Source: Pelagomonas calceolata (taxonomy: Eukaryota). Taken from it: a DNA stretch of 64,000 nt. The notes under the pieces are model-generated. The model worked only from the letters and a program-made list of their open reading frames with translations, was not told the DNA's origin and did no database searches. The stretch is taken from the NCBI GenBank assembly GCA_918797485.1, contig CAKKNE010000001.1:5518001-5582000 (forward strand), in the 5' to 3' direction. Below, one piece after another: positions 4,201 through 60,596 of this stretch. Numbering within the stretch: the first letter of the stretch is position 1; every line of letters begins with the position of its first letter. Position numbers and translations under genes: made by a program.

Positions 4201-4225
4201 GCTAGTGTCTTACAAGGCCGCTAGC
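4201..4225 (+). promoter_or_regulatory. CTAG-bounded intergenic motif, copy 1
   Basis: GCTAGTGTCTTACAAGGCCGCTAGC, ~155 bp upstream of the ATG at 4380. Confidence 0.65.
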
Positions 4226-4379
4226 TTAGGCGCGCGCGCAGCCGCAGAGGCCTGGAGGCGCAAAGCCGTGCAAACGGGGCACACTAAGCAGTGGCAGCTC
4301 TTGGTTAACGCCAGGGCTAACGACAGAGCTCGCCTGCCCAGCGTCAGGCGCCCAGGAGCAGCTGTACCGCAGCAGCGCC

Positions 4380-7300
4380 ATGGCGAACCCGACGCCCGCC
4401 CAGCTCGAAGCAAGGCTGAAATACTTCGTGCCCAGACTCAACGCCAGCGTCGCGCGATTAGAAAAGCACGCGGCGGCGCTCGCGGCCGCGACGGTCCGGC
4501 CGCTGCCCAAAAAACGCTGGTTCGCCGCGTTACTAAGAGCGCGCGACGCCCTGGAATACCACGCGAACGGCGATCTAAGGGGTTTGGTTGTGGACGCGAG
4601 CCGCTTCCCCTACGCGCGGAAACGGTTGGTCGTGGCCCGCTACTACAAGGAGGGGAAAAGGTACAGCGGCGAGGCCGAGGACGACGCGAACGAGGCCCAG
4701 CGGAGGTTAGATGAGGTAGACAGCGAGCGGGGCGAACGCTTCGCATTGCAGCTCGACGCCATCGAACAAAGAAAGACGTCCTGCGCGGACGCTCTCAAAA
4801 GATCGACAACTGAAGCGCTGGAGATCTTGGGAAGGGACAGCGCTCTATCTCTAGAATACCCGCGCGAGGAATTGAGGCACGGCTCTACCAAACTGAAACG
4901 CGGCGACGACCTGACGGGCCCCGAGGAGTTTTCCCAACCTCCAGTCAAGCGAGGAAATTCCTCGACCGCCCCCGTCAAGCGAGGTCGCCTGCGGCGGAAC
5001 GTCGCCGCGAGCGACTCGAGTGACGACGAGGAGGGCATCGACGCCGTCAAACGAAAAACGGGCCACGACCCCGATCAATTAGCCAAGGGCTCGGAGGAGA
5101 TGTTCGCGGAGCATACCGAGGGCGAGGTTGTTAACGACGAGAGTAGTAAGGAAGTTGTGGACCTATCAAAGCTCGAGGAGAACGAGGACTGGGAGGCGCT
5201 CGTGAAGGCGGCGCGAAAGCAATTGAGTGATGACCCGATCAATTGCGGACGAGCGTTGGGACGGGCCCTGTCGAACTTAGAACGGGACGAGGAGGCGTTG
5301 GCGGCCTTCTCCAGTGCCTTCGAGGCGGCTCGAGATTATCCTGACGATATCGAGCGAGTGCACATCGACCGCGGCCGGCACTGGCTAGATCGAGCAATTG
5401 CGGAAGAAGACCAACTAAAACAGAAGCACCTGGCGAATGAAGCATTGGGCGACTTTGAAAGGGCCGCGACGCTCGGCGCGCTCCATATGAACGAAGGCGG
5501 CGAGTGGCCGGACGCGTTTGCAAGGGCTAGGTACAACGCGGGCTTGGCGTTCGAGCTGGCGGGGAACAAGGAGGATGCGGCGTGCTCATTTGAGACGGCA
5601 GCCCAGGGTTTCCTGCGATTGCTGGACGAAGAAAGGACCGACGCTGATCTGCTGAAGGAGATGCGGGGGCGGGCATTGGTCTACGCCGGCCTTTGTAGGA
5701 TGGAGAAGCATGCGAACGTAGCTGCGGTCCTGTATGAACGAGCGGTCCTATGTCTGAACGACGTCGCGGCGAAGTGCCCGGGCGTTTTATTGGATGCTCT
5801 ACGCGGTTGCGTTTTTGCGAGGAGGCAGTCGGGTGATACTGAGGGAGCGAAGGCCGCTTCCCGCAATTACGCGGCGGCGGGCGGCGACTTGGATGATATC
5901 GATGAAGAGAGCGATGACGATTCTGTGGTTGATTTGACCGAATTCGAGGTCAAGGCGGAAAGCTTGGAGAGTATTGACGACGACGATTTGTATAACGAGA
6001 TGTCGCAAGAAGAACCCCTGGAATGTTTGAGTGGTGGGTTTGCGCTGAAGGGCCCTTTACAATATGATGAGCGGGAGCCGGAGGCGCCGGGCGACGCGAT
6101 TCGGCGGCGCTTCGTGCACCTGGCCATCCCGACGGGCGTCTCGGTGGTGCGCGGCGACGGGCGGCCGGCGAAGCGGCGGCGCGGGGCTGGTCGTGGTGGT
6201 GGGGGCGGCCTCGGAGGCGCTCCTGCTGGCGGCGGTACAGGGGGCCCCGGCCGCGGTGCCGGGGGCGGCCGCGGCGGCATTGGCGGGGCTGGCGCCAAGC
6301 GGGCAGGCGGCACGGGCGGGCCCGGCGCCAAGCGGCTTCGAGGCGACAACTACGGCTTTGCGCAGCGGCGGCCGTCCGCGGCGCCGACGAAGGGGCGCCG
6401 CCGGCGGCCGGGCGCCGCGCCGCCGCGAAAACGCCCGGCCGCGGCGGCGCCGCGTACTGGCCGCGGTACTGGCGGTACCGGCGCCGGCCGCGGGCCGCCC
6501 GTGCCCGCGGCCCGCGCGGCGCCGCGGACGGACGCCGACGACGAGGCCGAGTTCGAGTTTAGGGAAAGTCCGCCGCCACCGCCGGCGCCGCCGCCCGCCG
6601 CGCCGTCGTCGTCGTCGGACGACGAATCGAGCAGCGACGACAAGCCACTAGAGGAGCTCCGGCCGCGCGCCGCGCCGCGCCGAGCGCCGCGCGCCGCGTC
6701 GCCCCGCGGCGTCGACACGATCGACACGCTCGCGGCCCAGCTGGGCCTCCTCTCCCATCAAGAGAGAACGGAAAACGGGACGCTGACGCTCGGCGGCGCC
6801 GACGCGCGGGCCGTGGCGACCGCGGCGCGGCGTTGTACATCAACGGCACTGGCGCTGCGCTTCTGCCGGGGCGGCGCGGCGCTCGCGGCGGCCGCGGCCA
6901 AGGCATCAAGATTAACGTCGCTGTCGCTCATGGGCTGCGGGCTCGCGCTCGACGAGCTGGCGCCGCTCGAGGGGCGGCTACCCCACCTGACGCGCGTGGA
7001 CCTGAGCGCGAACCTGCTGGGGCGGCGGTCCCCATCGGCGCAGGCGCGGAGCGCGGGCGCGCGCGCACTTGAAGATCTGGCCTTCCGCTGCGACGCCGTC
7101 GACATGGCGCAGGTGTGCGTTGAGCCCCAGAGCCGCGCCTATCCTTTTGATGGAGGCGACGCCGTCGCCGCGGCCCTGGCGCGGGGCCTCCGGAAGCGGA
7201 ACGCGCCGCCCTCGCGAATTATGATACAGGACAACGCATTCACGGCGGGCGCCTGGCGCGAGGTCCTGTCCGCGCTGGCGCTGCGGCCGCCGTCTGATAC

Positions 7301-7850: not shown

Positions 7851-8945
7851 CTAGCTACTCGGTAAGTCCTCCAAGAAGCCCTCGAGCGCCCCGACCAGCA
7901 TGTCCTGCCGCGGCGTGGACATCTCCATGGAATTGTGCCCCTGGGCCATGCCGCGGGCGAGGGCACCTAGCTTCGCGTCGGCGGCGCATTTTACCGGGTG
8001 GTAGAGTTTCTTGCCTGCCACAAGCTTGCCGCCAAGCGTCGCGGCAAAGTCGAGAGTATACTCGGTGTCCTTCGGCCGTCGGCGCCAGCCCTTCTCGTTC
8101 GCCATCGACGCGGGCACGCGCTCGCCTGTGTAGAAATCAAATGGTCACAGCGCGTCTCCGCCACGGCTGAATCATGGCCTCCATGCCATCGACGGATTTC
8201 CACACAGGCGCTCGCCACCGAAGCCTAGCGTTCCGATGGCCGATTCTGGCAAATCGGCCCACTTGCAATCCGAGTCCCCGAGGGAATAGCAGAATTGTGC
8301 AGTCAGAGCCTCGTGGTAGCCCTCGGCCGCGTTCGCGTCGAAGGCCTCTGCCAGCCTCTTCGCGAATCGCCGTGTCATTCGCAATACGGACCAGGCCGTG
8401 CGTGTCACAAGCCCGCTCGTGCACTTTTTGGAGCCGATGCGACATTTCAGGCGCCGTTGTTTCACCATTCCGGGAGATGGGTTCCACGTTCCGTTGACAA
8501 TTGAGAAGCGGGCCACTAGGTCTGCCCCGGGCGGTGCCGACGCAAAGAGGTCGCGCCAGCGGCCCGTGAAGAACACATCTTCCTCAATGTGCCAGGCGGC
8601 CACATATTTGCTATCCGCCAGCCACCGGACGAAGGCCGGCTTGGACACGCCAGACCGCTGGCCGGCAAACGACCGCCACGGACTGGTATGATAGCCGAAA
8701 TACGTGAAGTTTTGCTGCTGCACGACGCCGTAGGTCTGCGTCGCGCTCGCGACCCAGGATTCGTTCGAGAGCGCGTAGACGGGACGGCCGCTCAAACGGC
8801 CGCCGCCGCTGGAGTCGACGATCGCTTCGAGGCGTTGGCGCACGCATTGCCGCTCGGCTTCTGTGCGGTTCTTCGGCCCGACGGGCACCACGACAGCCTC
8901 TCGCTGGCCGCGGACCGATGCGGCGGCGAGCAGGAGGATATACAT
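7851..8945 (-). CDS. Secreted, possibly glycosyltransferase-like protein; two exons (8945-8216, 8125-7851)
   Basis: Signal peptide and a WHIEEDVFFTGRW motif. Removing the 90-nt GC-AG intron 8126-8215 joins LGFGGER to VPASMANEKG in frame. Confidence 0.6.
8126..8207 (-). mobile_element. Introner-like element forming intron 8126-8215
   Basis: Ends CTGTGTAGAAAT...ATTTCCACACAG, flanked by a perfect 8-bp duplication GCGCTCGC (8118-8125, 8208-8215). Confidence 0.85.
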
Positions 8946-8947
8946 GC

Positions 8948-9142
8948 TCAGAGGCCGAGGAAGTACTGCGCTAACGGGTAGAGGACGAAGACGACCGCGA
9001 CGATGGCGAAGAGGATGCCGTGGACGTCGATGTTCGGGAGTTTTGACGGCTGATAGCGAGCCGGTCGCTCTCTTTTCGCGTCACTGAGCCGGTCTCCATA
9101 ATTGCCCTTTTCAATACCAACAGGATTCTTGCCTCGGCCCAT
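8948..9142 (-). CDS. Small 64-aa protein with a C-terminal transmembrane helix
   Basis: ATG-initiated ORF with a basic N-terminus and hydrophobic tail ILFAIVAVVFVLYPLAQYFLGL. Motif copy ~160 bp upstream. Confidence 0.55.
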   Translation of the reverse strand: MGRGKNPVGIEKGNYGDRLSDAKRERPARYQPSKLPNIDVHGILFAIVAVVFVLYPLAQYFLGL

Positions 9143-9301: not shown

Positions 9302-9324
9302 GCTAGCGGTGGTAAGACACTAGC
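9302..9324 (-). promoter_or_regulatory. CTAG-bounded intergenic motif, copy 2
   Basis: Reverse complement GCTAGTGTCTTACCACCGCTAGC, between divergent genes at 9142(-) and 9425(+). Confidence 0.65.
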
Positions 9325-14441: not shown

Positions 14442-14465
14442 CCTAGTGTCTTACAGGCCGCTAGC
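14442..14465 (+). promoter_or_regulatory. CTAG-bounded intergenic motif, copy 3
   Basis: CCTAGTGTCTTACAGGCCGCTAGC, ~235 bp upstream of YAF9. Confidence 0.65.
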
Positions 14466-14981
14466 TTTATGCCAGGCACATTTTTTTGGCTGTGACGCGC
14501 TAAAGACGGGAGTTACCGTGCGTCGGCGGCGTCCAACCTCACTCACTTCACTCAACGCGCCCTCACAACTATCTCTGTCGCGCCGACCTTTTTGCGTATG
14601 GCTATGTTACAGCTATGTATCCTGGGAAATTTCAAGAGAGAGAGAGTTAAGCGGTCACGAACGCTAGACTGACTCGTGCGCCGGCGAAGCTGCGTACACG
14701 GAGAAACGCTCAAAAGGGCAAACCCCTAAGAGCGCCACCCGGACACACCTTCCGCCGCGCGGGGGGGCGCGGAAATTTCAGCGACGGCGGCGCGGGGAGG
14801 ACCGATGAACTCAGGCGGCATCCGGTGTTCTTCGATCGTTGCGTGGGGGACCCCACTCTTGCTTGGGCGTGGGGCGGCCGGCTGCACGTGTGCCGAGCTT
14901 ATTTTGCGACACAGTATTTGTCCCGCCCACAGCGTGCGTATCTCTGGTCGCAATCCGAGCGAGAGAAAAAGCCAATAATCG

Positions 14982-15004
14982 GCTAGCGGCCTATGGGCAC
15001 TAGC
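14982..15004 (-). promoter_or_regulatory. CTAG-bounded motif variant, copy 4 (no adjacent protein start)
   Basis: Reverse complement GCTAGTGCCCATAGGCCGCTAGC. Confidence 0.45.
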
Positions 15005-15077: not shown

Positions 15078-16838
15078 CTAGTTAGACAACTCGCCGCTCT
15101 CCGACGGCGCGCGGGCCTCATGGTATATCGACTGCCCCAGGTCGACCTGCGGCGACTCGTCCTCCTCGTCCGTCGCCTCCTCGTCGGGCGGCTCCGCGGA
15201 GGCCTCGTGGTAGATCGACGCGCCGAGGTCGGGGTACTCGACGTCGGGCACTGGGGGAGGCGCGGGCGGCGGCGCTGGCGGCGGCGCCGCGGGCGCATCG
15301 TCAGAGGGCGCGTCGCGCTCGTGCGGCGTCGGGAGATCCGCAGGCGGCTTCGCCGAGATCGTCCCGGCCTTCGGATCGATGAAGGGCTGGCCGGGCTCGG
15401 GCGGCTTCGGCGGCGTGTGCAGGGGCCCGCCCGGCCCGAAGGTCCGGGGGTCCTCCCAGGGCGGCACGTCGAATTCCTCCTCCTCCTTGGACTTGATGAA
15501 GCGGTGGAAGGCCACCTGTGCGGAAATCATTTCTCGGCGATGATGCGGCCGTGCTGGCTCCGTCGAGCGGCGAGGAAGCAGCACCGCCACGCGATCGAGC
15601 AGGCGTCGCGTCGATGGCGTGGAGGTCGACGCGACGATTCAGCACGAAGGCGCCGTGAATTTTTAGTTTGACTCAGAAAGCTACTCTTTCACACTCGCCG
15701 CCGTCGGCAAAACGCGACACCAGGAACGCGCCGTCCGCGCCGACGCTCACGACCGTGTTCGGCGTCTTGCCGAAGGCGCAGATCGTCGGCGCGTGCACGC
15801 CGCGCACTTGCGCGAAGGACCACTCGGACTCGAGGTAGGCCGCGGCCAAGCCGCCGGGGACCACTTTCCTTAGGAACGCGAGGTGGCTCTTCTGGTTGTT
15901 CTGCGACGCGTGGTCCTCGACGTACGGCGCCAGTCGGTTCGACGACCTGCGCGGCGACGGCGTCGTCGCGCGATATGTTGCTCCGCCGGCACGCCGAGAC
16001 GAAGGCTCCGTTGCGACGCCGGCCCGCACGCGTTCGGCGCGACGACACGCCCGCCCTCGCTCTTCAGATTGAAGACGTGCACGGTGCCCTTGTCCGAGGA
16101 ACACGCCAAATACTTGGTCTCGGGACAGAACACGATCGAGTAGACCAAGGCTCGGTCCACGCCTCTCCGGAACTCCCGGAGCTGCGCGCCGGAATGCGAA
16201 TCGAACACTCTGATCAAAGTGCCCTTGTCCGAGGCCGTCGCGAGCAAGCTGCCGTCGCCACTCAACGCCAATCTAGCTAAATCCGACTCGTGCGCCGCCA
16301 CGACCGTCGACTTGCGCGCGTCGTACAATTCGACGCGCGCGTGGCCGCGCGTCACGCCCGGACACGCGAGCACGTTGTGCTTGGGATGCGGGCACAAAGC
16401 GACGAGCCCGCGCGGGTTCGGCTGCGTGTCGATCTGATCTAGTAATTTGAGATCGGAGAAGCGGTAGACGTAGACCTTCGTCGCCAACACCACAACAACC
16501 CGGTCTCTCCTCAGCTTGACCGCGCGTACATCAGACCGAAAACTCAATTCCCCGACACATCTGTTTTGATGGTCGTCCCAGATCATGACCTTGTTCGGCG
16601 GGTAGCGCGGCGAATTCCCCCCACCGACGAGCGCCAGCAAATTGCACCGAAACAACATTTCCACGATGCCGATGCCGTTGTTGAAATTCCTCTTGAACGT
16701 CTCCTTGAAGGGGTCGACGTTGTAGATGCGGAAGCCGCTGTCCGTGCCGCAGGCAAAACAACCACTGTCCTGATTGAAGGCCACAAACAACATCTCGGTC
16801 GGCCGCGACGCCGACGGGTAGACGCGGTAGACGTTCAT
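15078..16838 (-). CDS. ATG18: PROPPIN/WIPI autophagy protein; introns 15947-16029 and 15516-15684
   Basis: FNQDSGCFACG, VEMLFRCNLLALVGGG, ATASDKGTLIRVF and FRRG motif. Both GT-AG introns restore frame (PNA|SSNRL, ECER|VAFHRF). Confidence 0.92.
15516..15676 (-). mobile_element. Degenerate introner-like element forming intron 15516-15684
   Basis: One end CTGTGCGGAAATCA, the other decayed (..GACTCAG). Flanks AAGGCCAC/AAAGCTAC (6/8). Internal CGCGTCGATGGCGTGGAGG core. Confidence 0.75.
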
Positions 16839-17111: not shown

Positions 17112-17134
17112 GCTAGCTCCAGTAACACACTAGG
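17112..17134 (-). promoter_or_regulatory. CTAG-bounded intergenic motif, copy 5
   Basis: Reverse complement CCTAGTGTGTTACTGGAGCTAGC, between divergent ATG18 and HOP2. Confidence 0.55.
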
Positions 17135-18353: not shown

Positions 18354-18543
18354 CCGCATACGTCCGCATACGTCGCATACGTCGCATACGTCGCGTACGT
18401 CGCATACGCCCGCATACGTCGCATACGTCGCATACGTCCGCATACGTTCGCATACGTCGCATACGCCCGCATACGTTCGCATACGTCCGCATACGTCCGC
18501 ATACGCCCGCATACGTCGCATACGTCCGCATACGTGGCCGCAT
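18354..18543. repeat. Minisatellite of 9-10-bp units (GTCGCATAC/GTCCGCATAC)
   Basis: About 19 contiguous CGCATACG-containing units between the convergent HOP2 and UBC4 3' ends. Confidence 0.95.
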
Positions 18544-18679
18544 GGTCCTTGTAAACGCGCGAGCCGGAGCGAGAGGACGCCTCGACGCCGCCGCCGGGAG
18601 GACACGCGGAAAAAAAACTAGGAGTATGAAATCACTTCTCGGTTAACGGGAGAGAACTACTAATGGACGACGGGCAGGA

Positions 18680-19509
<830 letters not shown>

Positions 19510-19850
19510 GCTCTAACGCGCCGTGGATTCCCCCTGTCTGGCGCGTTTTAATACCCACGCTGGCCCGAGGTCTACGCGCTTGCTAAATTCCAAAAATTGC
19601 TGGCACGCTTAGACGGCTACTCCGCGCGACGTTCGTGCGTTCGTAATGCTGAATGCGGGTGACCAAATTTTGAAACTAGTATGTCAACCGCTATATTGGC
19701 TCGACCTTTTTGCGTTTTAGGCGTGCTCCTACAGCGCAGGAGAATGCCCGGTGCGCGCGGCGACAGTGCGTTAACACATTGATCGCTGGCGGCAAGCGCC
19801 TGCGTGAACGGTACCGTGAAACTCCCTTTTGTAGACAGCTGTGCAGCCAT

Positions 19851-21369: not shown

Positions 21370-21393
21370 GCTAGCGTCCTGTAAGGCACTAGC
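21370..21393 (-). promoter_or_regulatory. CTAG-bounded intergenic motif, copy 6
   Basis: Reverse complement GCTAGTGCCTTACAGGACGCTAGC, between the divergent ankyrin and CSN1 genes. Confidence 0.65.
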
Positions 21394-23295: not shown

Positions 23296-23319
23296 GCTAG
23301 TGTCTTACAAGTCGCTAGC
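23296..23319 (+). promoter_or_regulatory. CTAG-bounded intergenic motif, copy 7
   Basis: GCTAGTGTCTTACAAGTCGCTAGC, ~230 bp upstream of MetAP2. Confidence 0.65.
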
Positions 23320-23493
23320 TAATCGCATTTTGCGGAGGTCATTGGCGAATTGATCCTACGCTGTCCACACTGCACGCCACAGCACAGCAACTCTGCAACA
23401 GCAAACGTGATACCGCTTCTAGCGACTGCAGCGAACCGAGCTTCGTTCGACTAGCAGCGACTGCAAGCCACCACTGTGCAAGCATACCAATAG

Positions 23494-26766: not shown

Positions 26767-26790
26767 GCTAGCTTTTTGTAAGGCACTAGC
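26767..26790 (-). promoter_or_regulatory. CTAG-bounded intergenic motif, copy 8
   Basis: Reverse complement GCTAGTGCCTTACAAAAAGCTAGC, between divergent genes. Confidence 0.6.
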
Positions 26791-26982: not shown

Positions 26983-27789
26983 ATGCGGCGGATCTCAACG
27001 CAGTCGGATCGCACAATGACCGCTGGATCGGGAGCCGGCGTCCATGCCAAGAATAGCCAGATATCGGCGGTCGAGCTCGTTTCCGTGCGCGTGTCGTACG
27101 CGGAGGGTACCGTGCTTGGGCTCAACTGGTACGACGGCGACTATAATTGTTGGGAGGGCGGCCCGTGCTACGTACACCAGGCGATTGATCTCGGGACGCT
27201 GGCCGCCGGCGAGACGAAGACCGCCTCCATGAACCTGGGGGCCACGCTGTTTGCGTACAAGGGGAACGTTTGCGTCAAGCGCGCCGTGATCGTCGAGGAG
27301 GGCCAGCACGTCCAGATAAGCGCCGCCGACGTGCGGACCTTCAGCGTCGATGAGAAGGTAACGCCTGTGTGGAAATCAAATTTCGCGGCGCTTCTCGTCT
27401 ACGGCTAGACCATGACCTCCACGCCATCGACGCGATGCCTGCTCGATGGCATGGCAATGCCGGTTCCTCGCCGCTACGGCCGCGCCATCGCCGAGAAATG
27501 ACTTAGTGAAGAATTATCGGGTGCACCCGACGCACTGTTGATTTCCACACAGGTCAACGCGATGTGGCAGGGCAAGAGGCAGCTCTACCCGGCGACCGTG
27601 AAGGCCTTCCACTCCTACGAAAATTCCTATGATTTGGATTACGAAGACGGGGACTCGGAAACAAGGGTGCCGGCGCGCCTCATTCGGCCGCTCGCGACGG
27701 CTGCACCGCGCGACCTGATACCGACGCCGCTGACGACGACGTCCCAGGCCCCGCCGCCCGCGGACCTAGAGACGGGCGGGGAGCTCTAG
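26983..27789 (+). CDS. Protein with a C-terminal Tudor-like domain; intron 27358-27552; start uncertain
   Basis: Splicing gives FSVDEK|VNAMWQGKRQLYPATVKAFHSYENSYDLDYEDGDSETRVP, a Tudor-like pattern. Confidence 0.6.
27365..27552 (+). mobile_element. Introner-like element forming intron 27358-27552
   Basis: Perfect 15-bp inverted ends CTGTGTGGAAATCAA / TTGATTTCCACACAG, flanks GTAACGC / GTCAACGC, internal CCTCCACGCCATCGACGCG core. Confidence 0.88.
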
Positions 27790-30697: not shown

Positions 30698-30720
30698 GCT
30701 AGTGTCTTACTAGCGCTAGC
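30698..30720 (+). promoter_or_regulatory. CTAG-bounded intergenic motif, copy 9
   Basis: GCTAGTGTCTTACTAGCGCTAGC, between divergent selD and BASS2. Confidence 0.65.
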
Positions 30721-31023
30721 TGCAGTGCGGACGTTTCTCCCGCGCACGCGTCGCGGTGTTCGACCTTGACGCTTCCAGGCGCCCGGAGGGAGGAATAGTC
30801 CAGCTCGCCGTGGAATGACACTAGGGAGGTGTGGCCGGCGAGGGCAGCTTTGCACAGCAGTTTGGGCGCGTCGAGCGACGTCGCCAGGCTTCAAGCTGTG
30901 CCCAGTAGCTGTGAAAAGTCCTCGACTACGTCTGCTGCAAGCGGCGTGCACGGCGAGCGACTTTAAGGCGAGTTGCATTTAAAGCACATTGCTTGCGGCG
31001 AGTGCATTCAAAGCGAGGGCAGG

Positions 31024-33055
31024 ATGAACAAGCTCCTCTGGGCGCTCTTCGCCGCCGCGGCGGCCTTCGCCCCGGCCCCGGCGCCGCGCGCCGCGCGGCC
31101 CGTGCTCAAGGCGGTCAACAACGGCCGCGGCGTCGCGCAGAAGCTGCGGAGGTCAGGCGTCCGCCTTCAAGCGAAGGCAGAACCCCCGCGCGCCGCCGTC
31201 GTCGCGCAGGCCGCGGCGGCCGCCGTCGAGGACGCCGAACCGACGTGGTTCGACACGTACACCAAGGTCTCCGGCGCCTTGACCAACTTATTTCCGGTCT
31301 GGACGGTCGTCTTCACGTTGTGGGCCCTCAAGGACCCGTCGGCCTTCGCCTGGCTGACCACTAAATACTTCACGGCGGGCCTAGCGATTCTCATGCTGAG
31401 TATGGGTATTACGCTGGCCCCGAAGGACTTCCAAAGAGTGGCGACGCGGCCCAATGCGGTGTTATTGAACTTCGCGCTGTGCTACGGTACCGCGGCCAGC
31501 GTCCTATATTCATAAAGGGGGTGTAGCTCAGTGGCAGAGCGTCCGCTTTGCATGCGGAAAGCCCAGGGTTCAAACCCCTGCTCCTCCACACACACAAAAA
31601 CAACTCCGTGGCGCAATGGACAGCGTATCAGACTTCGAATCTGGGGGTTGCGGGTTCGAGTCCCGTCGGAGTTGTTTGCGTTCGCTCGACGGCGCGACGC
31701 CGCCGCCGCGACGCACCACGATCTTTCGTGGCGCGCCTGCTCGACGGCGTCACGCTGTCGCCGCGACGCACCACACCACACAAAATCTGGACGGACTGGA
31801 AATCTGAAGGCTCCGGGTTCGACTCCCGGGTCGGTCTACCGCGGAATTGAACTCAAAGCGAGATAGTGTGGCCGAGTGGTTAAGGCGGTAGACTTGAAAT
31901 CTACTCCCGCAAGGGTCGCAGGATCGATTCCTACAAAATCGATGCGCGTTCGAACCCTGTCACTATCGCGCACGTTGATGATGTGGCCGAGTGGTCTAAG
32001 CTCCTGGGAGCGACCAGAGGCGCTGGTTTTAGGCACCAGTCTTCGGGCGTGGGTTCGAACCCCACCATCATCACTTGAGTTCCATGCCGCACGTTCGTAT
32101 CCGTGGCCGAGTTGGTCTAAGGCGTTGGATTTAAGCCCCAATCTCTCCGGAGGCGTGGGTTCGAACCCCACCGGATGCACACATTTGACCGATGACGGTT
32201 TCGCCAATCAGATGCCAGTCCTGAGAGTTAATCGTGTGTCGGACACGAGGCTGACGGTACACTCTCGCAGGCATGATGCCGGCGCTCGGCCTGACCCTGG
32301 GCAAGATGTTCGCGCTAGATCCGGCTTTAGTGGCAGGGATGGTCCTCGTCGGCTCGATCAACGGCGGCCAGGCGTCGAATCTCTGCACGTTCATTGCGAA
32401 CGGGAACGTGGCCCTCTCGGTGCTCATGACGACGGCAACCACCATTGGAGCTATCTTCATGACTCCCCTATTGTGCAAGACCTTTCTGGGGACGGTCGTG
32501 CCCGTCGACGCCGCGGGCATTGTCGTCTCTACTCTACAGGTCGTCCTCGCGCCCATCTTAGTAGGCATGACGATGAACGCCAAGTTCCCGAAAGTCGTGA
32601 AGAAGATCACTCCTGTGACACCCGTCATAGGCATGGTCTCTACCTGTCTGCTGGTGGCCGCGGCTGTCGGGCAGGTCGCCGAGCCGATCCTGGCGGCTGG
32701 CCTCAACCTGCAATTACCGGTAATGCTCCTCCACTTGGTCGGCGGCATCGTCGGCTACTGGGGCGCTCGGGCTCTCGGCTTCGGCGAGACGTCGTCGAGA
32801 ACGATGGCCATCGAGACCTCGATGAAGAGCTCGGCCTTCGGCTTTTTACTAGCGAAGCTCCACTTCGGCGCCTTCGCCGCCCGCGTGCCTTCCGCGGTGT
32901 CCGTGGTCTGGATGGCGCTGACGGGCTCGTCGATGGCCGTCGCGTGGCGCTTCATGCCGGTCAAGCCGGTCAAGTTTGATAGAAAAGTCAAGGAGCGCTT
33001 CGAGTCCGTGGATCTCCTCACGCGGGCGAAGAAGCTCTTCGGCAAGGAGAAGTAG
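31024..33055 (+). CDS. BASS2: Plastid bile acid:sodium symporter family transporter (BASS1/2-like); exons 31024-31486 and 32271-33055
   Basis: AAAFAP presequence; LTNLFPVW, MLSMGITL, GGQASNLCTFIANGNVALSVLMT and RTMAIE. GT-AG intron 31487-32270 joins ALCYG|MMPALG in frame. Confidence 0.88.
31517..31588 (+). tRNA. trnA-UGC: tRNA-Ala(UGC), inside the BASS2 intron
   Basis: GGGGGTGTAGCTCAGTGG...CCGCTTTGCATGCGG...GGTTCAAACCC...CTCCTCCA with the G3:U70 identity pair. Confidence 0.95.
31602..31674 (+). tRNA. trnR-UCG: tRNA-Arg(UCG), inside the BASS2 intron
   Basis: AACTCCG/CGGAGTT acceptor stem, TCAGA-CT TCG AA-TCTGG anticodon arm, GCGGG-TTCGAGT-CCCGT T arm. Confidence 0.95.
31684..31774. repeat. 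Two imperfect 36-bp direct repeats within the tRNA cluster
   Basis: GCTCGACGGCG..ACGC...CGCCGCGACGCACCAC at 31684-31719 and 31739-31774. Confidence 0.8.
31791..31837 (+). pseudogene. Orphan 3' portion of a tRNA (anticodon-like arm, T arm, acceptor 3' strand) with no adjacent 5' half
   Basis: CGGA-CTGGAAA-TCTG, AAGGCT, CCGGG-TTCGACT-CCCGG, GTCGGTC. No D arm or matching acceptor 5' strand seen. Confidence 0.6.
31862..31968 (+). tRNA. trnS-UGA: tRNA-Ser(UGA) with a 26-nt non-canonical intron (31923-31948) at T-arm position 53/54
   Basis: GATAGTG/CACTATC acceptor, GTAGA-CT TGA AA-TCTAC, variable arm CCC-GCAA-GGG. Removing the insert restores GCAGG-TTCGAAC-CCTGT. Confidence 0.92.
31977..32073 (+). 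tRNA. trnL-UAG: tRNA-Leu(UAG) with a 19-nt non-canonical intron (31999-32017) in the D loop (20/21 region)
   Basis: GATGATG/CATCATC acceptor, CTGGT-TT TAG GC-ACCAG. Removing the insert restores GCCGAGTGGTCTAAGGC. Confidence 0.92.
32097..32179 (+). tRNA. trnL-UAA: tRNA-Leu(UAA), inside the BASS2 intron
   Basis: GTATCCG/CGGATGC acceptor, GCCGAGTTGGTCTAAGGC D arm, TT TAA GC loop (one A-C mismatch in the stem), long variable arm, GTGGG-TTCGAAC-CCCAC. Confidence 0.9.
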
Positions 33056-36951: not shown

Positions 36952-36974
36952 ACTAGCGGTGGTGAGACACTAGG
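36952..36974 (-). promoter_or_regulatory. CTAG-bounded intergenic motif, copy 10
   Basis: Reverse complement CCTAGTGTCTCACCACCGCTAGT, between divergent genes. Confidence 0.6.
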
Positions 36975-38141: not shown

Positions 38142-39260
38142 TTAGAGAACTACGTCTCGCGCTGCCAGCTTCGCCCGCGCTTCTTCCATCCCGCCCTGGA
38201 CCCTTCGGGCCTCAGGGTGCGATTTGCCAAATACGCGCTTATACGTCCTTGCGACACATTCGAGCGTCGTCACGGCCTCGCGGAGATCATCGAGCGTGGC
38301 GTCGGTGTCCAAGTAAAGTGCCCGCGCGTAATTGAAGCGCATCTTGAGTGTGAGTTCATGACCCTCGCCGAGGACGCGCCGCGCCACGGGCATCATTTTT
38401 ATTAACAGTGATTTGGCTTCTTGGAAGCGCTCTAGTTTCACAAGGGACATCGCGTAGTTGTTGGCTGCCATGATAGTTCTCTGATGTTCCTCGCAGTGGA
38501 GCTTCAAATGTCCGGAGTATACGTCTCGCCGCATCCGCAGGGCCTCTTCAAATCGTCCAAGCGCTCCATACGTGTTCGCAAGATTGTTCTGCGCGTCGAG
38601 TATGCTAACCTCTATTCCGCCACTGCGCCGTATCGTAGCTAACATGGCCTCTCTCACGGGCAATGCCTCCTCGTGGTGTTTTGCATCGTGTAAACCGTTC
38701 CCAAGCAGGTTCATCGCCAAGCACCGAACCGAGTCCTCTGGCCGCCCCACGTACGTCTTCCAGCACGCCCACCCGAGCGCGCATGCCACGACGCCATGGT
38801 AATACTGCTGGCACAGGCCGCAAAAATCCCACCGCATCCACCTCTCAATCCGCGCCTTCTCGCCCAAATTGTTCTCCTCGGCCTCGTCCATCAAAATCTT
38901 TGCCTGCTCCGCCAGACACGACACGTGCGCGAAACCCGCCGTCCCGCGGCACGCACACCCGCGCACGAGGCCCTCCTTTGTTTTCCAGTGGAGCGCCTGC
39001 GTGCAAATGAAGCACGTCTGGCCCTTCGTGTCCTCGGCGCACGCCTCGACGGCCTCCGCGACGGCCTCCTTGTATTTTTTGTCGGCGTGGTATTGTTCTG
39101 CGTTGCCGCCGCGGTGTATTTTCTTACACATCTGCTTGTGGCCGCGGCGCCAGTGGTCATGCTGGCAAGTTTTGTTACAATATCTTGTATGACACCTTAT
39201 GCATCGCGGCGCGTTGTGGGCCAGTGGGGCGGCGCAGGCGGCGCAATTTGTGAGGATCAT
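38142..39260 (-). CDS. MYND zinc finger + RINGv-like + TPR protein
   Basis: CAAC..C..C..YC...CQ..HW..GH...C; CFIC...CACRGTAGFAHVSCL; kinesin-light-chain-type TPRs (NNLANTY, NNYAMSL). Confidence 0.85.
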   Translation of the reverse strand: MILTNCAACAAPLAHNAPRCIRCHTRYCNKTCQHDHWRRGHKQMCKKIHRGGNAEQYHADKKYKEAVAEAVEACAEDTKGQTCFICTQALHWKTKEGLVRGCACRGTAGFAHVSCLAEQAKILMDEAEENNLGEKARIERWMRWDFCGLCQQYYHGVVACALGWACWKTYVGRPEDSVRCLAMNLLGNGLHDAKHHEEALPVREAMLATIRRSGGIEVSILDAQNNLANTYGALGRFEEALRMRRDVYSGHLKLHCEEHQRTIMAANNYAMSLVKLERFQEAKSLLIKMMPVARRVLGEGHELTLKMRFNYARALYLDTDATLDDLREAVTTLECVARTYKRVFGKSHPEARRVQGGMEEARAKLAARDVVL

Positions 39261-39324: not shown

Positions 39325-39348
39325 CCTAGTGTCTTTACAGCCGCTAGC
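39325..39348 (+). promoter_or_regulatory. CTAG-bounded intergenic motif, copy 11
   Basis: CCTAGTGTCTTTACAGCCGCTAGC, between divergent genes. Confidence 0.6.
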
Positions 39349-40696: not shown

Positions 40697-41506
40697 CTAT
40701 GATTCCTTAGTCGAGGCGGGGCGCGTCGATGGCGTAGCGGCGGCTTCGGCGCGGCGGCGTTTGCGCACGGATTGCTTCCCGTGGCCGCTCGCCTTGCGCG
40801 CACGGGGCACCAGCTGCCCGTCAACGACCGGGTTCGTCCGGCGCTTCCCTTCGAGGCCCGCGCGCCGGATCGCCGCGTTGACGGCGTGCGCCGCGTCCTC
40901 CTGGGTGTCGAAGTAGCCGAGGTTGCGCTTCTTGCCGTTCGCGTCGCGGTAGCCCGCCTCCCATCGTCGCGATTCCTTGTTCCACGACACGCCCCAGAAC
41001 TTGGACGATGTCGCCGACGGCGCACGCGCCGGGTCCGGAGCGACGACGGCGGAGTCGTCTCGCCGGTTGTGCGAGCCAGGCGCTTTCGGCACTAACGCGC
41101 CCGTCGCGTCGGCCGCGTTCATGCGGCGCCTACCTTCGAGGCCGGCGTCGCGGATCGCTTTATTAACCGCGCGGGCGGCCTCCTCCTCGTCGTTGAAGCA
41201 GCCGATGGTGCGCTTCTTGTCGGCCGCGTCTCTATATTGCGCCCGCCATTTCTTGGTTTCCTCATGCCAATACACGCCCCAGAAGCGCGACGTCGTCGTC
41301 CGCGTTGTACCTTCGCCTTCGTCCGCGACAGTCGCTGGTCCATCGCGGCCCAACGCCGGAGATTCCGGCGACCAGTCTTCATCGTCGTCGTCGTGACCAG
41401 TGAGGCTCACCACCGGGCTTGAAGGAGTTGAAGTGCCATAGCCCACCTTGCCTCCGAGAATCTGGGCGTCAAGCGCGAGGAGAACGTGAATAGGCGGCGT
41501 CTCCAT
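40697..41506 (-). CDS. Protein with two AP2/ERF DNA-binding domains
   Basis: SRFWGVYWHEETKKWRAQY...IGCFNDEEEAARAVN and SKFWGVSWNKESRRWEAGY...LGYFDTQEDAAHAVN. Confidence 0.88.
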   Translation of the reverse strand: METPPIHVLLALDAQILGGKVGYGTSTPSSPVVSLTGHDDDDEDWSPESPALGRDGPATVADEGEGTTRTTTSRFWGVYWHEETKKWRAQYRDAADKKRTIGCFNDEEEAARAVNKAIRDAGLEGRRRMNAADATGALVPKAPGSHNRRDDSAVVAPDPARAPSATSSKFWGVSWNKESRRWEAGYRDANGKKRNLGYFDTQEDAAHAVNAAIRRAGLEGKRRTNPVVDGQLVPRARKASGHGKQSVRKRRRAEAAATPSTRPASTKES

Positions 41507-41586: not shown

Positions 41587-41610
41587 GCTAGCGTCATGTA
41601 AGACACTAGC
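41587..41610 (-). promoter_or_regulatory. CTAG-bounded intergenic motif, copy 12
   Basis: Reverse complement GCTAGTGTCTTACATGACGCTAGC, between the divergent AP2 and ArsA genes. Confidence 0.65.
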
Positions 41611-43786: not shown

Positions 43787-45049
43787 TTACGCGTTTTCAA
43801 AATCGCTCGTTTCTGATATATACGAAGTGGTCGTCGCCGCCGTGTCGGCGTCCTCCTCCGAGTCGGCCGAGTACTCGTACTTACCGTCGTAATGGTACGC
43901 CAAACGGGTCTCCGGCGTGAGATCATCGATACTCCAGTCGAGCTGCTCGTCACGTACTTGCCACAGAAGGTCCCACAAGCTCTCGGTCATGACATGGTCC
44001 TCGCCATGAACGCGGATCGATGTCTCGACCAACTCCTCGAGGATCTCCAGGGCCTTGCGCAGGTCCTCGCGGTAGTCGTCATAGCCGTAGAAGTGGAAAT
44101 CGTGGAGGGTCATCGCGTACAATTCCTTCAAGTGGAATTCATCAACGTCGTCCCCGACCTTCTGCAAGTCATATAAATTGCTCAATAGCTCCTTGGCCTC
44201 GTGCAAATGCCTGTGGTGTACGAGATCCGCTGCTAGTTTCCCGGCAGCCAATAAGGTCGATCTGTGCGAATTTCCATAAAATTGTCCCTTCTCGCAATAA
44301 ATCTCGCGTGAGGTGGCGATAGCCGCATCAGTCCGGCCGAGTTTCTCGTAGCACTCTTTCAGATTATTCAGGACGTCTATGACTCCTTCTTGATTAACAG
44401 GGAACTCCGTACGAAGCTTCGCCAACTGTGACTGGTGCACGAGAAGTCCTTCTTCCCACCGCTCATCTTTCATCATACTCGTTGCGAGACGATTCAGTGC
44501 AACGCGCCCAAATACATTGTCGCAGTACGTCTTCCAGCACGCCCATCCAAGCGCGTGCGCAACGACGCCGCGGTACTCTTGCTCGCACAGGCTACACGTA
44601 GACCACCGGTCCCATCTCGCCTGATAGACCTTGTCATCCAAATTGTTCTCCACCGCCTCCGCGACCAAAATCTTCGCCTGCTCCGCCAAGCACGACACGT
44701 GGGCAAAGCCCGCCGTCCCGCGGCACGCGCACATGCGCACGAGGCCCTCATTTGTGCGCTGAAAGACGCCCTTCGTGCATATGTAGCACGTCTGACCTTT
44801 CGCGTCCTCGGCGCACTTCTCGACCGCGACCGCGACGGCCTCCTTATATTTTTTGTTGGCGTGGTATCGTTCCGCGTCGCCGCCGCGGTGTATTTTCTTA
44901 CAGATCTGCTTGTGGCCGCGGCGCCAGTGGTCCTGCTGGCAGGTGGCATCGCAATATCTGGATCGGCATCGCACGCATCGTGGCGCGTCGTGGGCCAGTG
45001 GGGCGGCGCAGGCGGCGCAGTTTGTGAGTAGGTACGCAGACGGCGCCAT
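43787..45049 (-). CDS. MYND zinc finger + RINGv-like + helical-repeat protein (paralog of 38142-39260)
   Basis: N-terminal LTNCAACAAPLAH...LGWACWKTY closely matches the paralog; the C-terminus diverges. Confidence 0.85.
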   Translation of the reverse strand: MAPSAYLLTNCAACAAPLAHDAPRCVRCRSRYCDATCQQDHWRRGHKQICKKIHRGGDAERYHANKKYKEAVAVAVEKCAEDAKGQTCYICTKGVFQRTNEGLVRMCACRGTAGFAHVSCLAEQAKILVAEAVENNLDDKVYQARWDRWSTCSLCEQEYRGVVAHALGWACWKTYCDNVFGRVALNRLATSMMKDERWEEGLLVHQSQLAKLRTEFPVNQEGVIDVLNNLKECYEKLGRTDAAIATSREIYCEKGQFYGNSHRSTLLAAGKLAADLVHHRHLHEAKELLSNLYDLQKVGDDVDEFHLKELYAMTLHDFHFYGYDDYREDLRKALEILEELVETSIRVHGEDHVMTESLWDLLWQVRDEQLDWSIDDLTPETRLAYHYDGKYEYSADSEEDADTAATTTSYISETSDFENA

Positions 45050-46881: not shown

Positions 46882-46905
46882 TCTAGTGCCTTACCGCCCG
46901 CTAGT
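46882..46905 (+). promoter_or_regulatory. CTAG-bounded intergenic motif, copy 13
   Basis: TCTAGTGCCTTACCGCCCGCTAGT, ~195 bp upstream of asnS. Confidence 0.6.
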
Positions 46906-48351: not shown

Positions 48352-48375
48352 GCTAGCGGTCTGTAACACACTAGC
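48352..48375 (-). promoter_or_regulatory. CTAG-bounded intergenic motif, copy 14
   Basis: Reverse complement GCTAGTGTGTTACAGACCGCTAGC, between divergent genes. Confidence 0.65.
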
Positions 48376-51649: not shown

Positions 51650-51673
51650 GCTAGTGTCTTACCGGTCGCTAGC
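51650..51673 (+). promoter_or_regulatory. CTAG-bounded intergenic motif, copy 15
   Basis: GCTAGTGTCTTACCGGTCGCTAGC, between divergent genes. Confidence 0.65.
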
Positions 51674-57061: not shown

Positions 57062-57083
57062 GCTAGCGTTGCAGGGCACTAGC
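57062..57083 (-). promoter_or_regulatory. CTAG-bounded motif variant, copy 16
   Basis: Reverse complement GCTAGTGCCCTGCAACGCTAGC, ~165 bp upstream of the MTR kinase gene. Confidence 0.5.
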
Positions 57084-57247
57084 ATTTTACAGCAAGTGAG
57101 GCTTTCACTGCGCGTGCTTCCACAGAAGAAGTGCTCTGCTCAATCGGACAGGCACACACAAGTCTAAAATTGCAGCTCGTCCGCACCACGTGCAAAGACC
57201 TGTCGTAGACAGAAACCTTTGCAATCACTCACAGCCACACAAAGCCC

Positions 57248-58714: not shown

Positions 58715-58818
58715 ACTCCTCCCCTGTGTGCCCTGTCCCGGTCGTCTAACCTTAATAGTCGATTCGAATTCTTACACAAGAGCGAGCGATGGAGCGAGCG
58801 ATCGGGCGCGCCGAGGTT

Positions 58819-60291
58819 TCAGGCGCGCGACGGATCCGGCATCGACGGCGGTTCTAAACCTTGATGCAAATAGAAGGAGTCCTCCATCGTGTTCCAGGTG
58901 CAGAAGTCGAAGCCTGAATACGACGACTGGAACGAGTAGTCGAAGTCGCCCTGGAATTCCAACCCATACCCTTCCACACCTTCCGAGTGGAAGTGGTCGC
59001 CGATGGCCGACGTCTCGTGCGGCGTGAACGCAATACCAGCAGAGGTGAAGGCGCGCATGTACGTGTCCAAGGGGCACGCGGAGAGCCCCAAACCGAGGTG
59101 GCGGTCGTACCAGGCGCTCCATCCGTAATTTGAACCGGCATACGCATCACGCACGGAGTTGATGTACTCGACGTAATCCACCACGGAGTGCTTCCCACCA
59201 AACTGAGCGTTGTTCTCGACATAAGATAACTCGATCTGCATCTCCTCCTGGAAGATGTAGTGGATGTTCTTCACCGTTAACACGCGAGACAGTCCGCTCT
59301 TCGACACGACGGAGTCCAGGACGGGGAAGTGCGTCCTCCAAAAATTAGCAGCATTATCGACGTGCGCCGCGCCTATCGAAACGCGGACGGGGAACCACTG
59401 ATCGGCGGTAGGCAGCCTCCCTTGATAGTCTTTGTTGGTTGCCCACCATTGATCTAACACGTCGCCATCATACACCTTCGAGAAGTGGCACGCGGGACAT
59501 TCGTCCGCGGTCCACTCGATAGGCTCAACGATGCCGTCATCGAGTCTTGGTGAGGTCAATTCATACACTTTGCCCGTGGGAGAACCCACAACTAACGTAT
59601 AATAAGTCCGCCCATCCAACGGCGACTGGCCCTTCCTCGCTAGGAAAGGTTCGTTGTCCGCCACTAACCGTTTCGCAGTAGCGGTCAGGTCGGGATTATA
59701 CATGTGTAACGCGTAGTGCATGAAGGGGTTCCACGTATTAGTAGCGAACGACTCGTCGTTCAACGCCTTCTGGTAGTCGTCCCAGTACTTCACGTCCAGC
59801 GGTCCCGTCGGCGTGATGTCGTGGATGTAGGGGAAATGCAGTTCCATGGGCTTCACGGCCCCGAAAGCTAACTTGCGAATATGGACCTTCCCATTACAGT
59901 CCCAGTACGTCGAGGGATCTTCCAAATTCGTCGTGTCGTCGTCGGCGCCCTCGTCGCCGCCCGTTAATTGGTCGGTGGCCCCAAAAACGCGCGTCGCAAA
60001 CTCCGCGTCGAGTTCTGGGCTTGAAGTCGTGATGGTATATTTTGATAATTCCAACCAGCCGCCATCGCGGCATTGATAATCATTACCCCAGGTCGCGCTC
60101 CAGCCGAACAAAGCTGCTGTTGTGCGGCGGCCCGTCGCTGTGGCGGCGCCTAAGAGACCAAGCGTGGCGCAGGCGCCGAGCACTAGTGAGCGGCGGCGCG
60201 CCGGCTTCTCCCCATGCAGCGGCGTGGTCTCGTCCGCTACGGGCGTGCAGGCCTCCTCCTCATCATCCATCCTCGCTGGGCTGCCTTCCAT
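58819..60291 (-). CDS. Hypothetical type II membrane protein
   Basis: 490-aa ORF: N-terminal ETTPL motif, a transmembrane helix, then an aromatic-rich lumenal region. Confidence 0.7.
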   Translation of the reverse strand: MEGSPARMDDEEEACTPVADETTPLHGEKPARRRSLVLGACATLGLLGAATATGRRTTAALFGWSATWGNDYQCRDGGWLELSKYTITTSSPELDAEFATRVFGATDQLTGGDEGADDDTTNLEDPSTYWDCNGKVHIRKLAFGAVKPMELHFPYIHDITPTGPLDVKYWDDYQKALNDESFATNTWNPFMHYALHMYNPDLTATAKRLVADNEPFLARKGQSPLDGRTYYTLVVGSPTGKVYELTSPRLDDGIVEPIEWTADECPACHFSKVYDGDVLDQWWATNKDYQGRLPTADQWFPVRVSIGAAHVDNAANFWRTHFPVLDSVVSKSGLSRVLTVKNIHYIFQEEMQIELSYVENNAQFGGKHSVVDYVEYINSVRDAYAGSNYGWSAWYDRHLGLGLSACPLDTYMRAFTSAGIAFTPHETSAIGDHFHSEGVEGYGLEFQGDFDYSFQSSYSGFDFCTWNTMEDSFYLHQGLEPPSMPDPSRA

Positions 60292-60572
60292 GGGGCCCGC
60301 GCTCGTCGCAGGGCCGCAAATATAAATAGCGGCGTGCCCGGGGGGCTATTGGAGGCGAGGTCACCGCGTATTGCGCCTCGGGGCTGCCTCTTGCGCCCGT
60401 CGCGGCCCCGCTTTTGACGCGAGATGGCTTGGAATGGACTCCTTCCTCATGATACGAAGTAAAGGGGCTTCCCCACTAGGATTCCGAGGGGAGGCCTCCT
60501 GGGCTTGTCTCTGCTGCATGTAGATGCCGGGCCCGAGCGCTCCGGGACGCTTTCGCAAGCCCTTGCTTGCTT

Positions 60573-60596
60573 GCTAGTGTCTTACATGTCGCTAGC
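60573..60596 (+). promoter_or_regulatory. CTAG-bounded intergenic motif, copy 17
   Basis: GCTAGTGTCTTACATGTCGCTAGC, between divergent genes. Confidence 0.65.

Follow-up and report, generated by a model that had tools for sequence, protein, structure and literature searches.

What is the short, CTAG-bounded sequence that recurs upstream of so many genes in Pelagomonas calceolata? Our window, the whole stretch of 64,000 nucleotides that was analysed, contains 17 copies (Table 1), all found where an earlier note on this DNA had placed them, with the consensus (TTGCTTG)CTAGTGTCTTAC-N2-5-CGCTAG(CT) and a length of 20-23 bases from CTAG to CTAG. A two-block matrix made from these copies scored them at 26-46 bits (18-44 bits with leave-one-out) and the runner-up site in the window, at 30804, at 16 bits, a clear gap which indicates that no copy was missed there. 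The pattern CTAGTGYSTTAC-N2-6-CGCTAG had 11 exact matches in the window, compared with a mean of 0.00 and a maximum of 0 in 100 dinucleotide shuffles. The motif is genuine, with an information content of ~38 bits (17 copies; the estimate is biased upward). Its left half reads CTAGTG in all 17 copies and its right half, on the opposite strand, CTAGCG in 15 of them, and the CTAG starts lie 16-19 bp apart, which is the gap of 12-15 bp between half-sites described previously. Of the dimeric factor proposed earlier, a two-part, likely protein-bound site stands, but a symmetric homodimer site does not, given the unlike halves and a spacing that varies by 3 bp. No second strong motif was seen near the copies, where the top 6-7-mers were T-tract words, and a search of 16 gaps lacking the motif turned up no degenerate copies beyond chance level. 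One such copy, suspected at ~2842-2861, needed 7 edits, was matched in 7/60 shuffles and was rejected; it would have made the low-GC stretch 2860-4190 resemble an element with terminal repeats.

Table 1. Motif copies in the window and one neighbouring gene
Feature	Position	Strand	Context
Motif copy	4202..4224	+	Divergent gap 2689/4380; 167 bp to 4380 ATG, 1.5 kb to 2689
Motif copy	9303..9323	-	Divergent; upstream of zeta-carotene isomerase-like gene (9425, +) and small minus-strand ORF
Motif copy	14443..14464	+	Tandem gap; upstream of YEATS gene (14206, -)
Weakest copy ("orphan")	14983..15003	-	Tandem gap shared with 14443 copy; 75 bp beyond inferred PROPPIN gene stop
Motif copy	17113..17133	-	Divergent 16838/17274
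Motif copy	21371..21392	-	Divergent 21181/21598
Motif copy	23297..23318	+	Tandem; upstream of methionine aminopeptidase (23551, +); weak RNA 5'-end pile-up at 23348
Motif copy	26768..26789	-	Divergent 26584/about 26953
Motif copy	30699..30719	+	Divergent 30539/31024
Motif copy	36953..36973	-	Divergent 36656/37109
Motif copy	39326..39347	+	Divergent 39260/39552
Motif copy	41588..41609	-	Divergent 41506/41704
Motif copy	46883..46904	+	Tandem; upstream of Asn-tRNA synthetase (46687, -)
Motif copy	48353..48374	-	Divergent 48217/48542
Motif copy	51651..51672	+	Divergent 51457/51940 (complex I 51-kDa subunit)
Motif copy	57063..57082	-	Tandem; 15 bp beyond upstream stop codon, upstream of 57248 (+)
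Motif copy	60574..60595	+	Divergent 60291/60807
AP2-domain gene	40697..41506	-	One Pfam hit, internal duplication; given as one example of a candidate DNA-binding family

Gap classes in the window were assigned with gene ends taken from ORF and domain evidence plus reading of the sequence. Exactly one copy lies in 12 of the 14 divergent gaps (P = 2e-4 against Poisson), and the two exceptions are the pairs already named as lacking one, 11362/11863 and 19509/19851, both of which were among the gaps searched for degenerate copies. The motif is also present in 4 of the 8 tandem gaps, one of which holds two copies including the orphan at 14983, so specificity for divergent pairs was not borne out; divergent gaps are in the majority because both of their genes share one copy. 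The 14983 copy faces a short ORF on the minus strand, or a fragment of a paralogue, near 14726-14821. No copy lies in coding sequence, which makes up 78% of the window (P about 5e-12), and the same is true of 146 further copies that a metagenome scan found beside unrelated genes (0/146 in predicted coding segments). Convergent gaps are empty in the window (0/15), where they account for 1,076 of 10,575 intergenic bases and their emptiness is not significant taken alone (P = 0.16), and the metagenome copies with genes on both sides (n = 60) comprise 39 in divergent, 19 in tandem and 2 in convergent gaps (P = 8e-4 per base for the last), a convergent shortfall that is significant.

With one copy per 3.8 kb, the window would extrapolate to about 8,000 genome sites if this density holds, and 28 of the 36 window gene starts share a gap with a copy. 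Genes next to copies are functionally unrelated (complex I, tRNA synthetase, kinases, transporters and lineage-specific genes), and the highly expressed gene 19509 has no copy. The distance from motif centre to ATG is 77-315 bp, with a median of 200 (25 window gene starts). Orientation is independent of the gene, as the earlier note had it, with 10 copies in the same and 9 in the opposite orientation at tandem promoters, and the motif sits at the middle of divergent gaps (KS P = 1e-6, n = 39); the median distance to coding sequence is 208 bp on one side and 210 bp on the other. At the metagenome loci the motif is absent from 14 of 53 predicted divergent gaps, and a degenerate copy, sought in 9 of those 14, was not found above chance. 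Viral contigs gave 0 motif matches. Prokaryotic genomes gave 8 single matches in 596 billion bases, and in five marine MAG cases a looser pattern matched 1-3 times per genome, with an alga-like insert in the one contig inspected; these matches look like contamination or chance and not like a bacterial element. The lineage-wide distribution once suggested holds for related marine contigs only, including one diverged orthologous pair.

New here is a mirror-image pattern in the flanking sequence, running outward from the motif centre to ~300 bp. T-tracts lie 20-40 bp out on both sides (TTTT, 70 vs 12.8 expected, 244 arms), CA dinucleotides number 500 vs 351 expected at 145-165 bp (244 arms), and CG peaks occur at ~120 bp (t = 6.9, 309 arms) and ~300 bp (t = 6.2, 206 arms), with a maximum of 3.4 for the jitter null of the CG peaks; the CG and CA peak positions were picked after viewing the data. 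The nearer CG peak recurs on both sides in four disjoint sets and the farther one in three; in the fourth set just 3 arms extend that far. On the sense strand a zone rich in CA spans 140-180 bp; it is found only on arms toward gene starts, remains when the ATG is at least 215 bp away (t = 4.2, n = 49), and is missing on gene-end arms (t = 0.5) and on the opposite strand. The CG peak at 300 is also seen on gene-end arms (t = 3.6), and within coding sequence it comes from codon positions 2-3. The pattern is anchored to the motif rather than to the ATG. A third CG peak near 480 was not seen, and neither long-range CG periodicity (120-260 bp) nor 10-bp phasing was found; the sole significant periodogram value, at period 252, reflects the two single CG peaks. 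The mirror-image flanks, a sequence proxy for chromatin, suggest nucleosome positioning and would fit the positioning element proposed earlier.

Judging from sequence, the motif is probably a selected, orientation-independent promoter element, likely the site of a lineage-specific general regulatory factor, with a role like that of Reb1 or Abf1, that would centre a nucleosome-depleted region. A protein with two recognition modules, for which multi-AP2, Myb and transposase-derived domains are candidates, would bind CTAGTGTCTTAC and CGCTAG and act as a barrier, and remodelers would place one nucleosome per side, from ~135 to 285 bp with its dyad near 210, so that the CG peaks at ~120 and ~300 would be the linkers of that nucleosome. 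Huff and Zilberman reportedly found in 2014 that pelagophyte linkers are marked by CG-rich peaks. In algae, DNMT5 is reported to methylate CG periodically and in linkers only (PMC9246332). Transcription would start mostly ~140-170 bp out, just inside the flanking nucleosome, on whichever side has a gene, and because starts would be possible on either side, one copy could serve two head-to-head genes.

Yeast Reb1, Abf1 and Rap1 likewise have promoter sites at functionally unrelated genes, and the Abf1 site is bipartite; the sites of these general regulatory factors are unrelated to our motif in sequence, and the motif is longer, with a spacer that varies by 3-4 bp. Yeast splits its promoters among several factors, whereas here one motif covers 28 of 36 window gene starts by itself. 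Reb1 sites have symmetric nucleosome arrays whatever their orientation (PMC8163841), with the dyad at 150 ± 18 bp as against the ~210 bp that would apply here. The Toxoplasma promoter motif gCATGCa occurs in 44% of start windows (PMC7854901); it lies ~82 nt before the start and near the middle of the nucleosome-depleted region, phasing around it is symmetric and transcription begins in both directions. GCTAGC is the element of Toxoplasma AP2XI-5, in 12.3% of promoters (PMC13734140); it is identical to the right half-site here, which may be coincidence. The Toxoplasma motifs are single palindromic hexamers, whereas ours, from an ochrophyte, is an asymmetric site of 20-23 bp made of two parts, and the starts predicted here would be about twice as far from the motif. 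Orientation-tolerant elements of housekeeping or head-to-head promoters also include the ZNF143 site and Drosophila DRE/BEAF-32, and both DREF and BEAF-32 contain a BED finger of transposase origin. The animal CGCG element is similarly orientation-tolerant and found at housekeeping and head-to-head promoters (PMC6192621). These animal elements have no sequence likeness to the motif and cover a minority of promoters.

The earlier note had named a bidirectional core promoter as one of two readings; the promoter association stands, but a classical core element is not supported, given the random orientation and starts that would lie ~150 bp and not 30 bp away. Such an element, replacing the TATA box and recruiting the initiation complex directly with starts ~25-40 bp away in either direction, is in our view unlikely. 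It would account for the T-tracts immediately flanking the motif and for the only RNA 5'-end pile-up beside a copy, at 23348, which lies +41 bp from the centre and 30 bp beyond the motif end, with a TCATT initiator-like word 7 bp upstream (5 molecules at depth 17 in one run). This 5' end at +41 rather than ~150 speaks against our preferred reading, as a weak and single case, and similar small pile-ups within coding sequence at 21676 and 31300 indicate that such signals can be artefacts. Moreover, 4 of 25 window ATGs are 77-112 bp from the centre, too near for a start at 150. However, a core element would be expected to keep one orientation with respect to its gene, the CA-rich zone, which is strand-specific, is at 140-180 bp and not at 30-40 bp, and the CG peak at 300 on gene-end arms would be left unexplained. 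Genes 14206 and 16838 also have little coverage within ~80-120 bp of the motif centre in coarse 667-bp depth bins (two other genes were uninformative), and because these bins are too coarse, start positions rest on composition.

Rather improbable, too, is that the motif spread into promoters as the end or footprint of a transposon (CTAG duplicated round a core of 12-16 bp, or a solo terminal repeat starting TGT), either as a passive relic or co-opted with a domesticated transposase, the latter being compatible with a general regulatory factor. Because CTAG is self-reverse-complementary, a 4-bp duplication is one way to read the two CTAGs, and the exact spacer AGGC is over-represented (33/100 copies against an expected 22, P = 0.006), a hint that the copies derive from a single ancestral sequence. 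Among 163 copies there are three inward-facing close pairs (14443/14983, L085 and L087), the arms of L085 matching over 28 bases at 96%; six copies share a GGGAGCCCTGG-type word ~5-70 bp after the motif, and three copy pairs have common flanking sequence right to the motif edge. Flanks are otherwise unrelated between copies, however, and outside the motif a 4-bp duplication is present in at most 3/156 copies in any register tried. In a 300-bp flank comparison nothing was common to the sequences enclosed by the inward pairs, and L085 has a small ORF between its copies. A transposase, integrase or Rep domain was found in 0 of 110 neighbouring coding segments (E <= 1e-12; 110 of 206 segments scanned), and no transposase partner was found among the 37 window ORFs.

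Promoters carry a single copy each, and position-specific conservation conflicts with passive decay: both CTAGs are intact in 31/35 copies (window plus off-pattern), compared with 17-24% of detectable copies predicted by a uniform decay of 20-40%, and the CTAG halves are near-invariant while the spacer departs from AGGC at 42% of positions. The orthologous pair (61% fourfold-site identity) kept 23 of 26 motif bases with flanks aligning at 50% and 38%, a conservation that is partly built in because the pair was retrieved by the motif pattern. MITE/TIR ends, Helitron 3' ends and REP hairpins are likewise short dispersed intergenic repeats with CTAG ends and imperfect dyad symmetry, but the motif has no outer duplication, shared body, transposase (in the scanned segments) or covariation. 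A Helitron 3' end has a terminal CTRR with a hairpin ~10 bp before it and a host T after it; here the terminal CTAG is mostly followed by C, with T in 11/156 copies in one orientation and 0/156 in the other.

We give little credence to a boundary or replication element, that is, an insulator between head-to-head genes or an origin determinant that merely shares promoter regions. The centring between divergent genes, the freedom of orientation and the symmetric flanks would suit it, barrier proteins such as Reb1, Abf1 and Rap1 often have such double roles, and BEAF-32 is an insulator-type analogue between head-to-head genes. But tandem promoters carry the motif and convergent gaps rarely do, the copy density is far above that of known origins, and the CA zone points toward gene starts only. 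A hairpin or cruciform, in DNA or RNA, read by its structure like bacterial REP elements has next to no probability: the 24-mer consensus is by inspection an imperfect palindrome (16/24 positions) and some variants such as GTCT-TAC-AGAC fold perfectly, but pairing matches independence at ten positions (80 vs 81.8 and 61 vs 60.5, for example; 100 copies with 18-bp spacing), the T/C asymmetry between halves stays fixed, Rfam and ARAGORN returned tRNAs only, with no match at any motif copy, and the lack of covariation largely refutes this reading. Since it shows neither hairpin covariation nor a shared flank nor, in the scanned segments, a transposase, the motif behaves like a double-stranded binding site kept by selection and unlike a transposon relic in decay.

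Our literature search found no published description of the motif and no promoter grammar for pelagophytes. What is unusual is that one motif covers so much, that the spacer between its asymmetric halves varies, and that the mirror imprint reaches 300 bp into coding sequence. A bolder proposal, which we hold tentatively and would rate as somewhat doubtful, is that one lineage-specific factor at ~3/4 of promoters serves as a ruler fixing nucleosomes and starts and leaving a CG imprint in synonymous positions 300 bp off, its site perhaps a former transposon end and its reader perhaps a domesticated transposase.

A single high-information motif at most promoters would allow genes and start sites to be annotated from sequence alone, would supply this alga's genetic toolkit with a minimal bidirectional promoter, and would give a direct route, by pull-down, to the factor organising the alga's chromatin. 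How nucleosome arrays are phased in algae with linker CG methylation would likewise become testable. Pelagomonas calceolata is among the ocean's most abundant eukaryotes, and if the proposed reading is true, one factor marks most of its promoters.

All 17 copies of the motif claimed by the earlier note were found in the window, and the oriented copies gave the consensus (TGCTTG)CTAGTGTCTTAC-N2-5-CGCTAG(CT). Their matrix scores ranged from 26 to 46 bits (18-44 in leave-one-out), with the next site at 16 bits, and the strict pattern matched 11 times versus 0.00 in 100 shuffles. Using gene ends from gene calls and reading of the sequence, and excluding a possible 2-bp tandem gap at 8945/8951, we confirmed the reported placement between head-to-head genes, with exactly one copy in 12 of 14 divergent gaps. 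Four of eight tandem gaps held five copies in total, and none of the 15 convergent gaps held any, these gaps being short and their emptiness not significant by itself (P = 0.16). This one-per-gap spread is more even than a Poisson distribution would give (P = 2e-4), and the noted absence from CDS also stood, as the motif is excluded from coding DNA, which makes up 78% of the window (P ~5e-12). Extrapolating from this one window, with a copy every 3.8 kb, would give ~8,000 copies for the genome.

Outside the window, we scanned at least 125 metagenome-contig loci (296 kb), chosen for having a copy. The matrix found at least 146 copies in 124 of the 125 listed loci; the remaining one, L045, has its match at the contig end, below matrix score 17. 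None of the 146 copies fell in coding segments predicted by a model trained on the genes of the window. Genes were called on both sides of 60 listed copies (39 divergent, 19 tandem, 2 convergent), and 86 had one flanking gene called or none, mostly due to short flanks. Among the listed loci, a copy was present in 39/53 divergent, 19/48 same-strand (introns counted) and 2/50 convergent gaps, fractions not to be taken as genome rates, since each locus was picked for carrying a copy; the convergent deficit was significant per base (P = 8e-4). The earlier note had set equal density in coding or convergent DNA against its own proposal, and we found exclusion from the former and scarcity in the latter. 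The pattern had zero matches in viral contigs and 8 scattered matches in prokaryotic genomes, which look like contamination or chance. Full-consensus copies were seen in marine bacterial and archaeal MAG contigs (L126-L130 and L133), and an alga-like stretch within the bacterial contig L127 suggests algal contamination of these assemblies.

The spacing from CTAG to CTAG over 163 copies (window and listed loci) was 18 in 100, 17 in 40, 16 and 19 in 11 each, and 20 in one. A test set of 35 copies comprised those of the window and those not fitting the search pattern; all 35 kept the left CTAG and 31 the right, and the spacer departed from AGGC at 42% of positions (18 copies with spacing 18). A uniform decay model leaves both CTAGs intact in 17-24% of detectable copies at 20-40% decay, and in 44% at 10%. 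Across the imperfect palindrome, pairing at ten position pairs was as frequent as independence predicts, which, along with CTAG retention above the decay model, indicates that the constraint is position-specific and not structural. The asymmetry of the halves and their spacing of 16 to 20 bp point to a pair of linked recognition modules more than to a rigid homodimer.

Orientation was independent of the gene, as previously claimed (10 vs 9 in the listed metagenome loci), distances from motif to coding sequence were equal on the two sides (medians 208 and 210), the motif was centered in divergent gaps (P = 1e-6), and the adjoining genes had functions unrelated to one another. L021 and L051 carry the same divergent gene pair in two lineages (243/248 residues and 67/110 fourfold sites identical), with 23/26 motif bases alike versus 135/272 and 86/224 flank columns; as both were retrieved by the motif pattern, this motif conservation is weaker than it looks.

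We read 326 arms (one side of a copy each) from the window and listed copies outward from the motif center. T-tracts were found 20-40 bp out on both sides (TTTT 70 vs 12.8 expected, 244 arms not facing gene ends) and on gene-end-facing arms too. CG peaks, whose positions were chosen after inspection of the data but which replicate nonetheless, were detected at 100-140 bp (t = 6.9, 309 arms; t = 3.3, 3.5, 4.4 and 2.6 in four disjoint sets; 4.9 on each side) and 280-320 bp (t = 6.2, 206 arms; jitter null maximum 3.4). The zone at 140-180 bp was poor in CG and rich in CA (CA 500 vs 351); this enrichment was limited to the sense strand, persisted with the ATG at least 215 bp away (t = 4.2, n = 49), was not found on 48 arms facing gene ends, and is distinct from another CA zone immediately upstream of the ATG (t = 8.3). 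The outer CG peak was independent of ATG distance, was also there when the arm pointed to a gene end (t = 3.6, n = 41), and within coding sequence fell at codon positions 2-3 (12.6, 18.3, then 13.8 per 100), while an ATG-anchored profile rose right after the start without the pair of peaks. No third CG peak near 480 bp, long array or 10-bp phasing was found in these profiles. The motif is a selected, orientation-free element that occurs once per upstream region, and symmetric composition signals spread from it as far as 300 bp.

The motif may derive from a transposon, with an old origin and later co-option, as the two CTAGs are readable as a duplication, AGGC spacers are more common than expected (33/100 vs 22), three pairs among the listed and window copies face inward, and a few copies have common flanks right up to the motif edge. 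Against a transposon family, a possibility raised by the earlier note, there was no duplication outside the motif, no body shared between copies, and no transposase-type domain (E <= 1e-12) in 110 scanned coding segments (of 206) near the motif. The conservation pattern also excludes passive decay.

We consider it fairly probable that a general regulatory factor, with a role like that of Reb1 or Abf1, binds the motif and sets the flanking nucleosomes and starts. The region from -120 to +120 would be open with the factor at its middle, and the CG peaks, 180 bp apart, would be linkers on either side of a nucleosome centered near ±210, with the CA zone marking transcription initiation slightly inside it. 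The peaks are read as linkers because algae with DNMT5 confine CG methylation to linkers and because linkers of this kind are CG-rich in Aureococcus. Such confinement is described for algae with DNMT5, Emiliania being named (PMC9246332). Symmetric alignment regardless of motif orientation would resemble the action of Reb1, around which nucleosomes line up symmetrically whichever way the site faces, their dyad lying 150 ± 18 bp from it (PMC8163841). Against this mechanism, the sole 5′-end pile-up near a copy lies at +41 (23348; 5 molecules), four window ATGs are at most 112 bp from a motif center, and a gene with strong expression, at 19509, lacks a copy, so the rule is statistical and not every gene needs the motif.

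The window is eukaryotic, dense in genes and 62% GC, and its complex I subunit groups with proteins of Ectocarpus and Attheya. The P. calceolata genome has 32.4 Mb, six chromosomes, 16,667 genes, 63.6% GC and introns of Introner length (PMC9481584).

Other features of the window and the metagenome loci (L-numbers)
Feature	Location	Observation
Small minus-strand ORF	8951-9133	Terminal hydrophobic stretch; stop 2 bp short of next ATG (8945), no room for promoter; possibly two-gene transcript or mis-read splice
Low-GC stretch between divergent genes	2860-4190	Diverged unit every ~280-290 bp; ~100 bp adjoining motif common to L011; possibly old repeat or insertion
Repeat family, ~170-200 bp	~15518-15685, 27357-27552; L012, L033, L055, L056, L063, L078	Splice-like ends AG/GT ... 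ATTTCC(G/A)CACAG/GT; by sequence, probably Introner elements; ~15518-15685 has pile-up of reads from other copies; with it, 15078-15517 would be the final exon of PROPPIN gene
GT-AG intron, 784 bp, bile-acid-symporter-family gene	31486-32269	Five sense-strand tRNA-like genes (Ala, Arg, Leu by ARAGORN; two further by Rfam); splicing supported by 147 reads; 172 reads connect 31674 back to 31517, either tandem tRNA paralogue elsewhere or circular product
Highly expressed gene	18663-19561	Sharp 5′ ends 19533-19561; 386-bp intron; motif absent; by eye, reads like ubiquitin-conjugating enzyme
Tandem array of CGCATACGT-like unit	~18355-18540	Beyond 3′ end of gene 18663-19561
MYND-RINGv-TPR family	38142-39260, 43787-45049; L002, L006, L013, L033, L040, L059, L071, L093, L108	Much duplicated; L108 and window copies have motif ~60 bp upstream of ATG, opposite-side gene differs
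GGGAGCCCTGGAAGC-like second short word	L012, L021, L036, L050 (twice), L091; also 3871	~5-70 bp after six motif copies, same orientation; reads as partner site or small repeat family

The nearest functional counterparts of the motif are the sites of general regulatory factors in yeast and, in Toxoplasma, the gCATGCa motif, which occurs in 44% of start windows, ~82 nt upstream and near the center of the open region (PMC7854901). The AP2XI-5 element of Toxoplasma, GCTAGC (PMC13734140), is identical to the right half of the algal motif, which may be coincidence; an AP2-domain gene is present in the window. The words "motif", "promoter" and "intergenic" are absent from the main texts of the P. calceolata genome paper and the pelagophyte pangenome preprint, the examined parts of the former's supplementary files hold no DNA motif, and titles and abstract openings in the open literature gave no description, although subscription papers could mention it. 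The motif is a real promoter element, apparently undescribed, whose type of function is known; what is unusual about it is its coverage and its long-range imprint.
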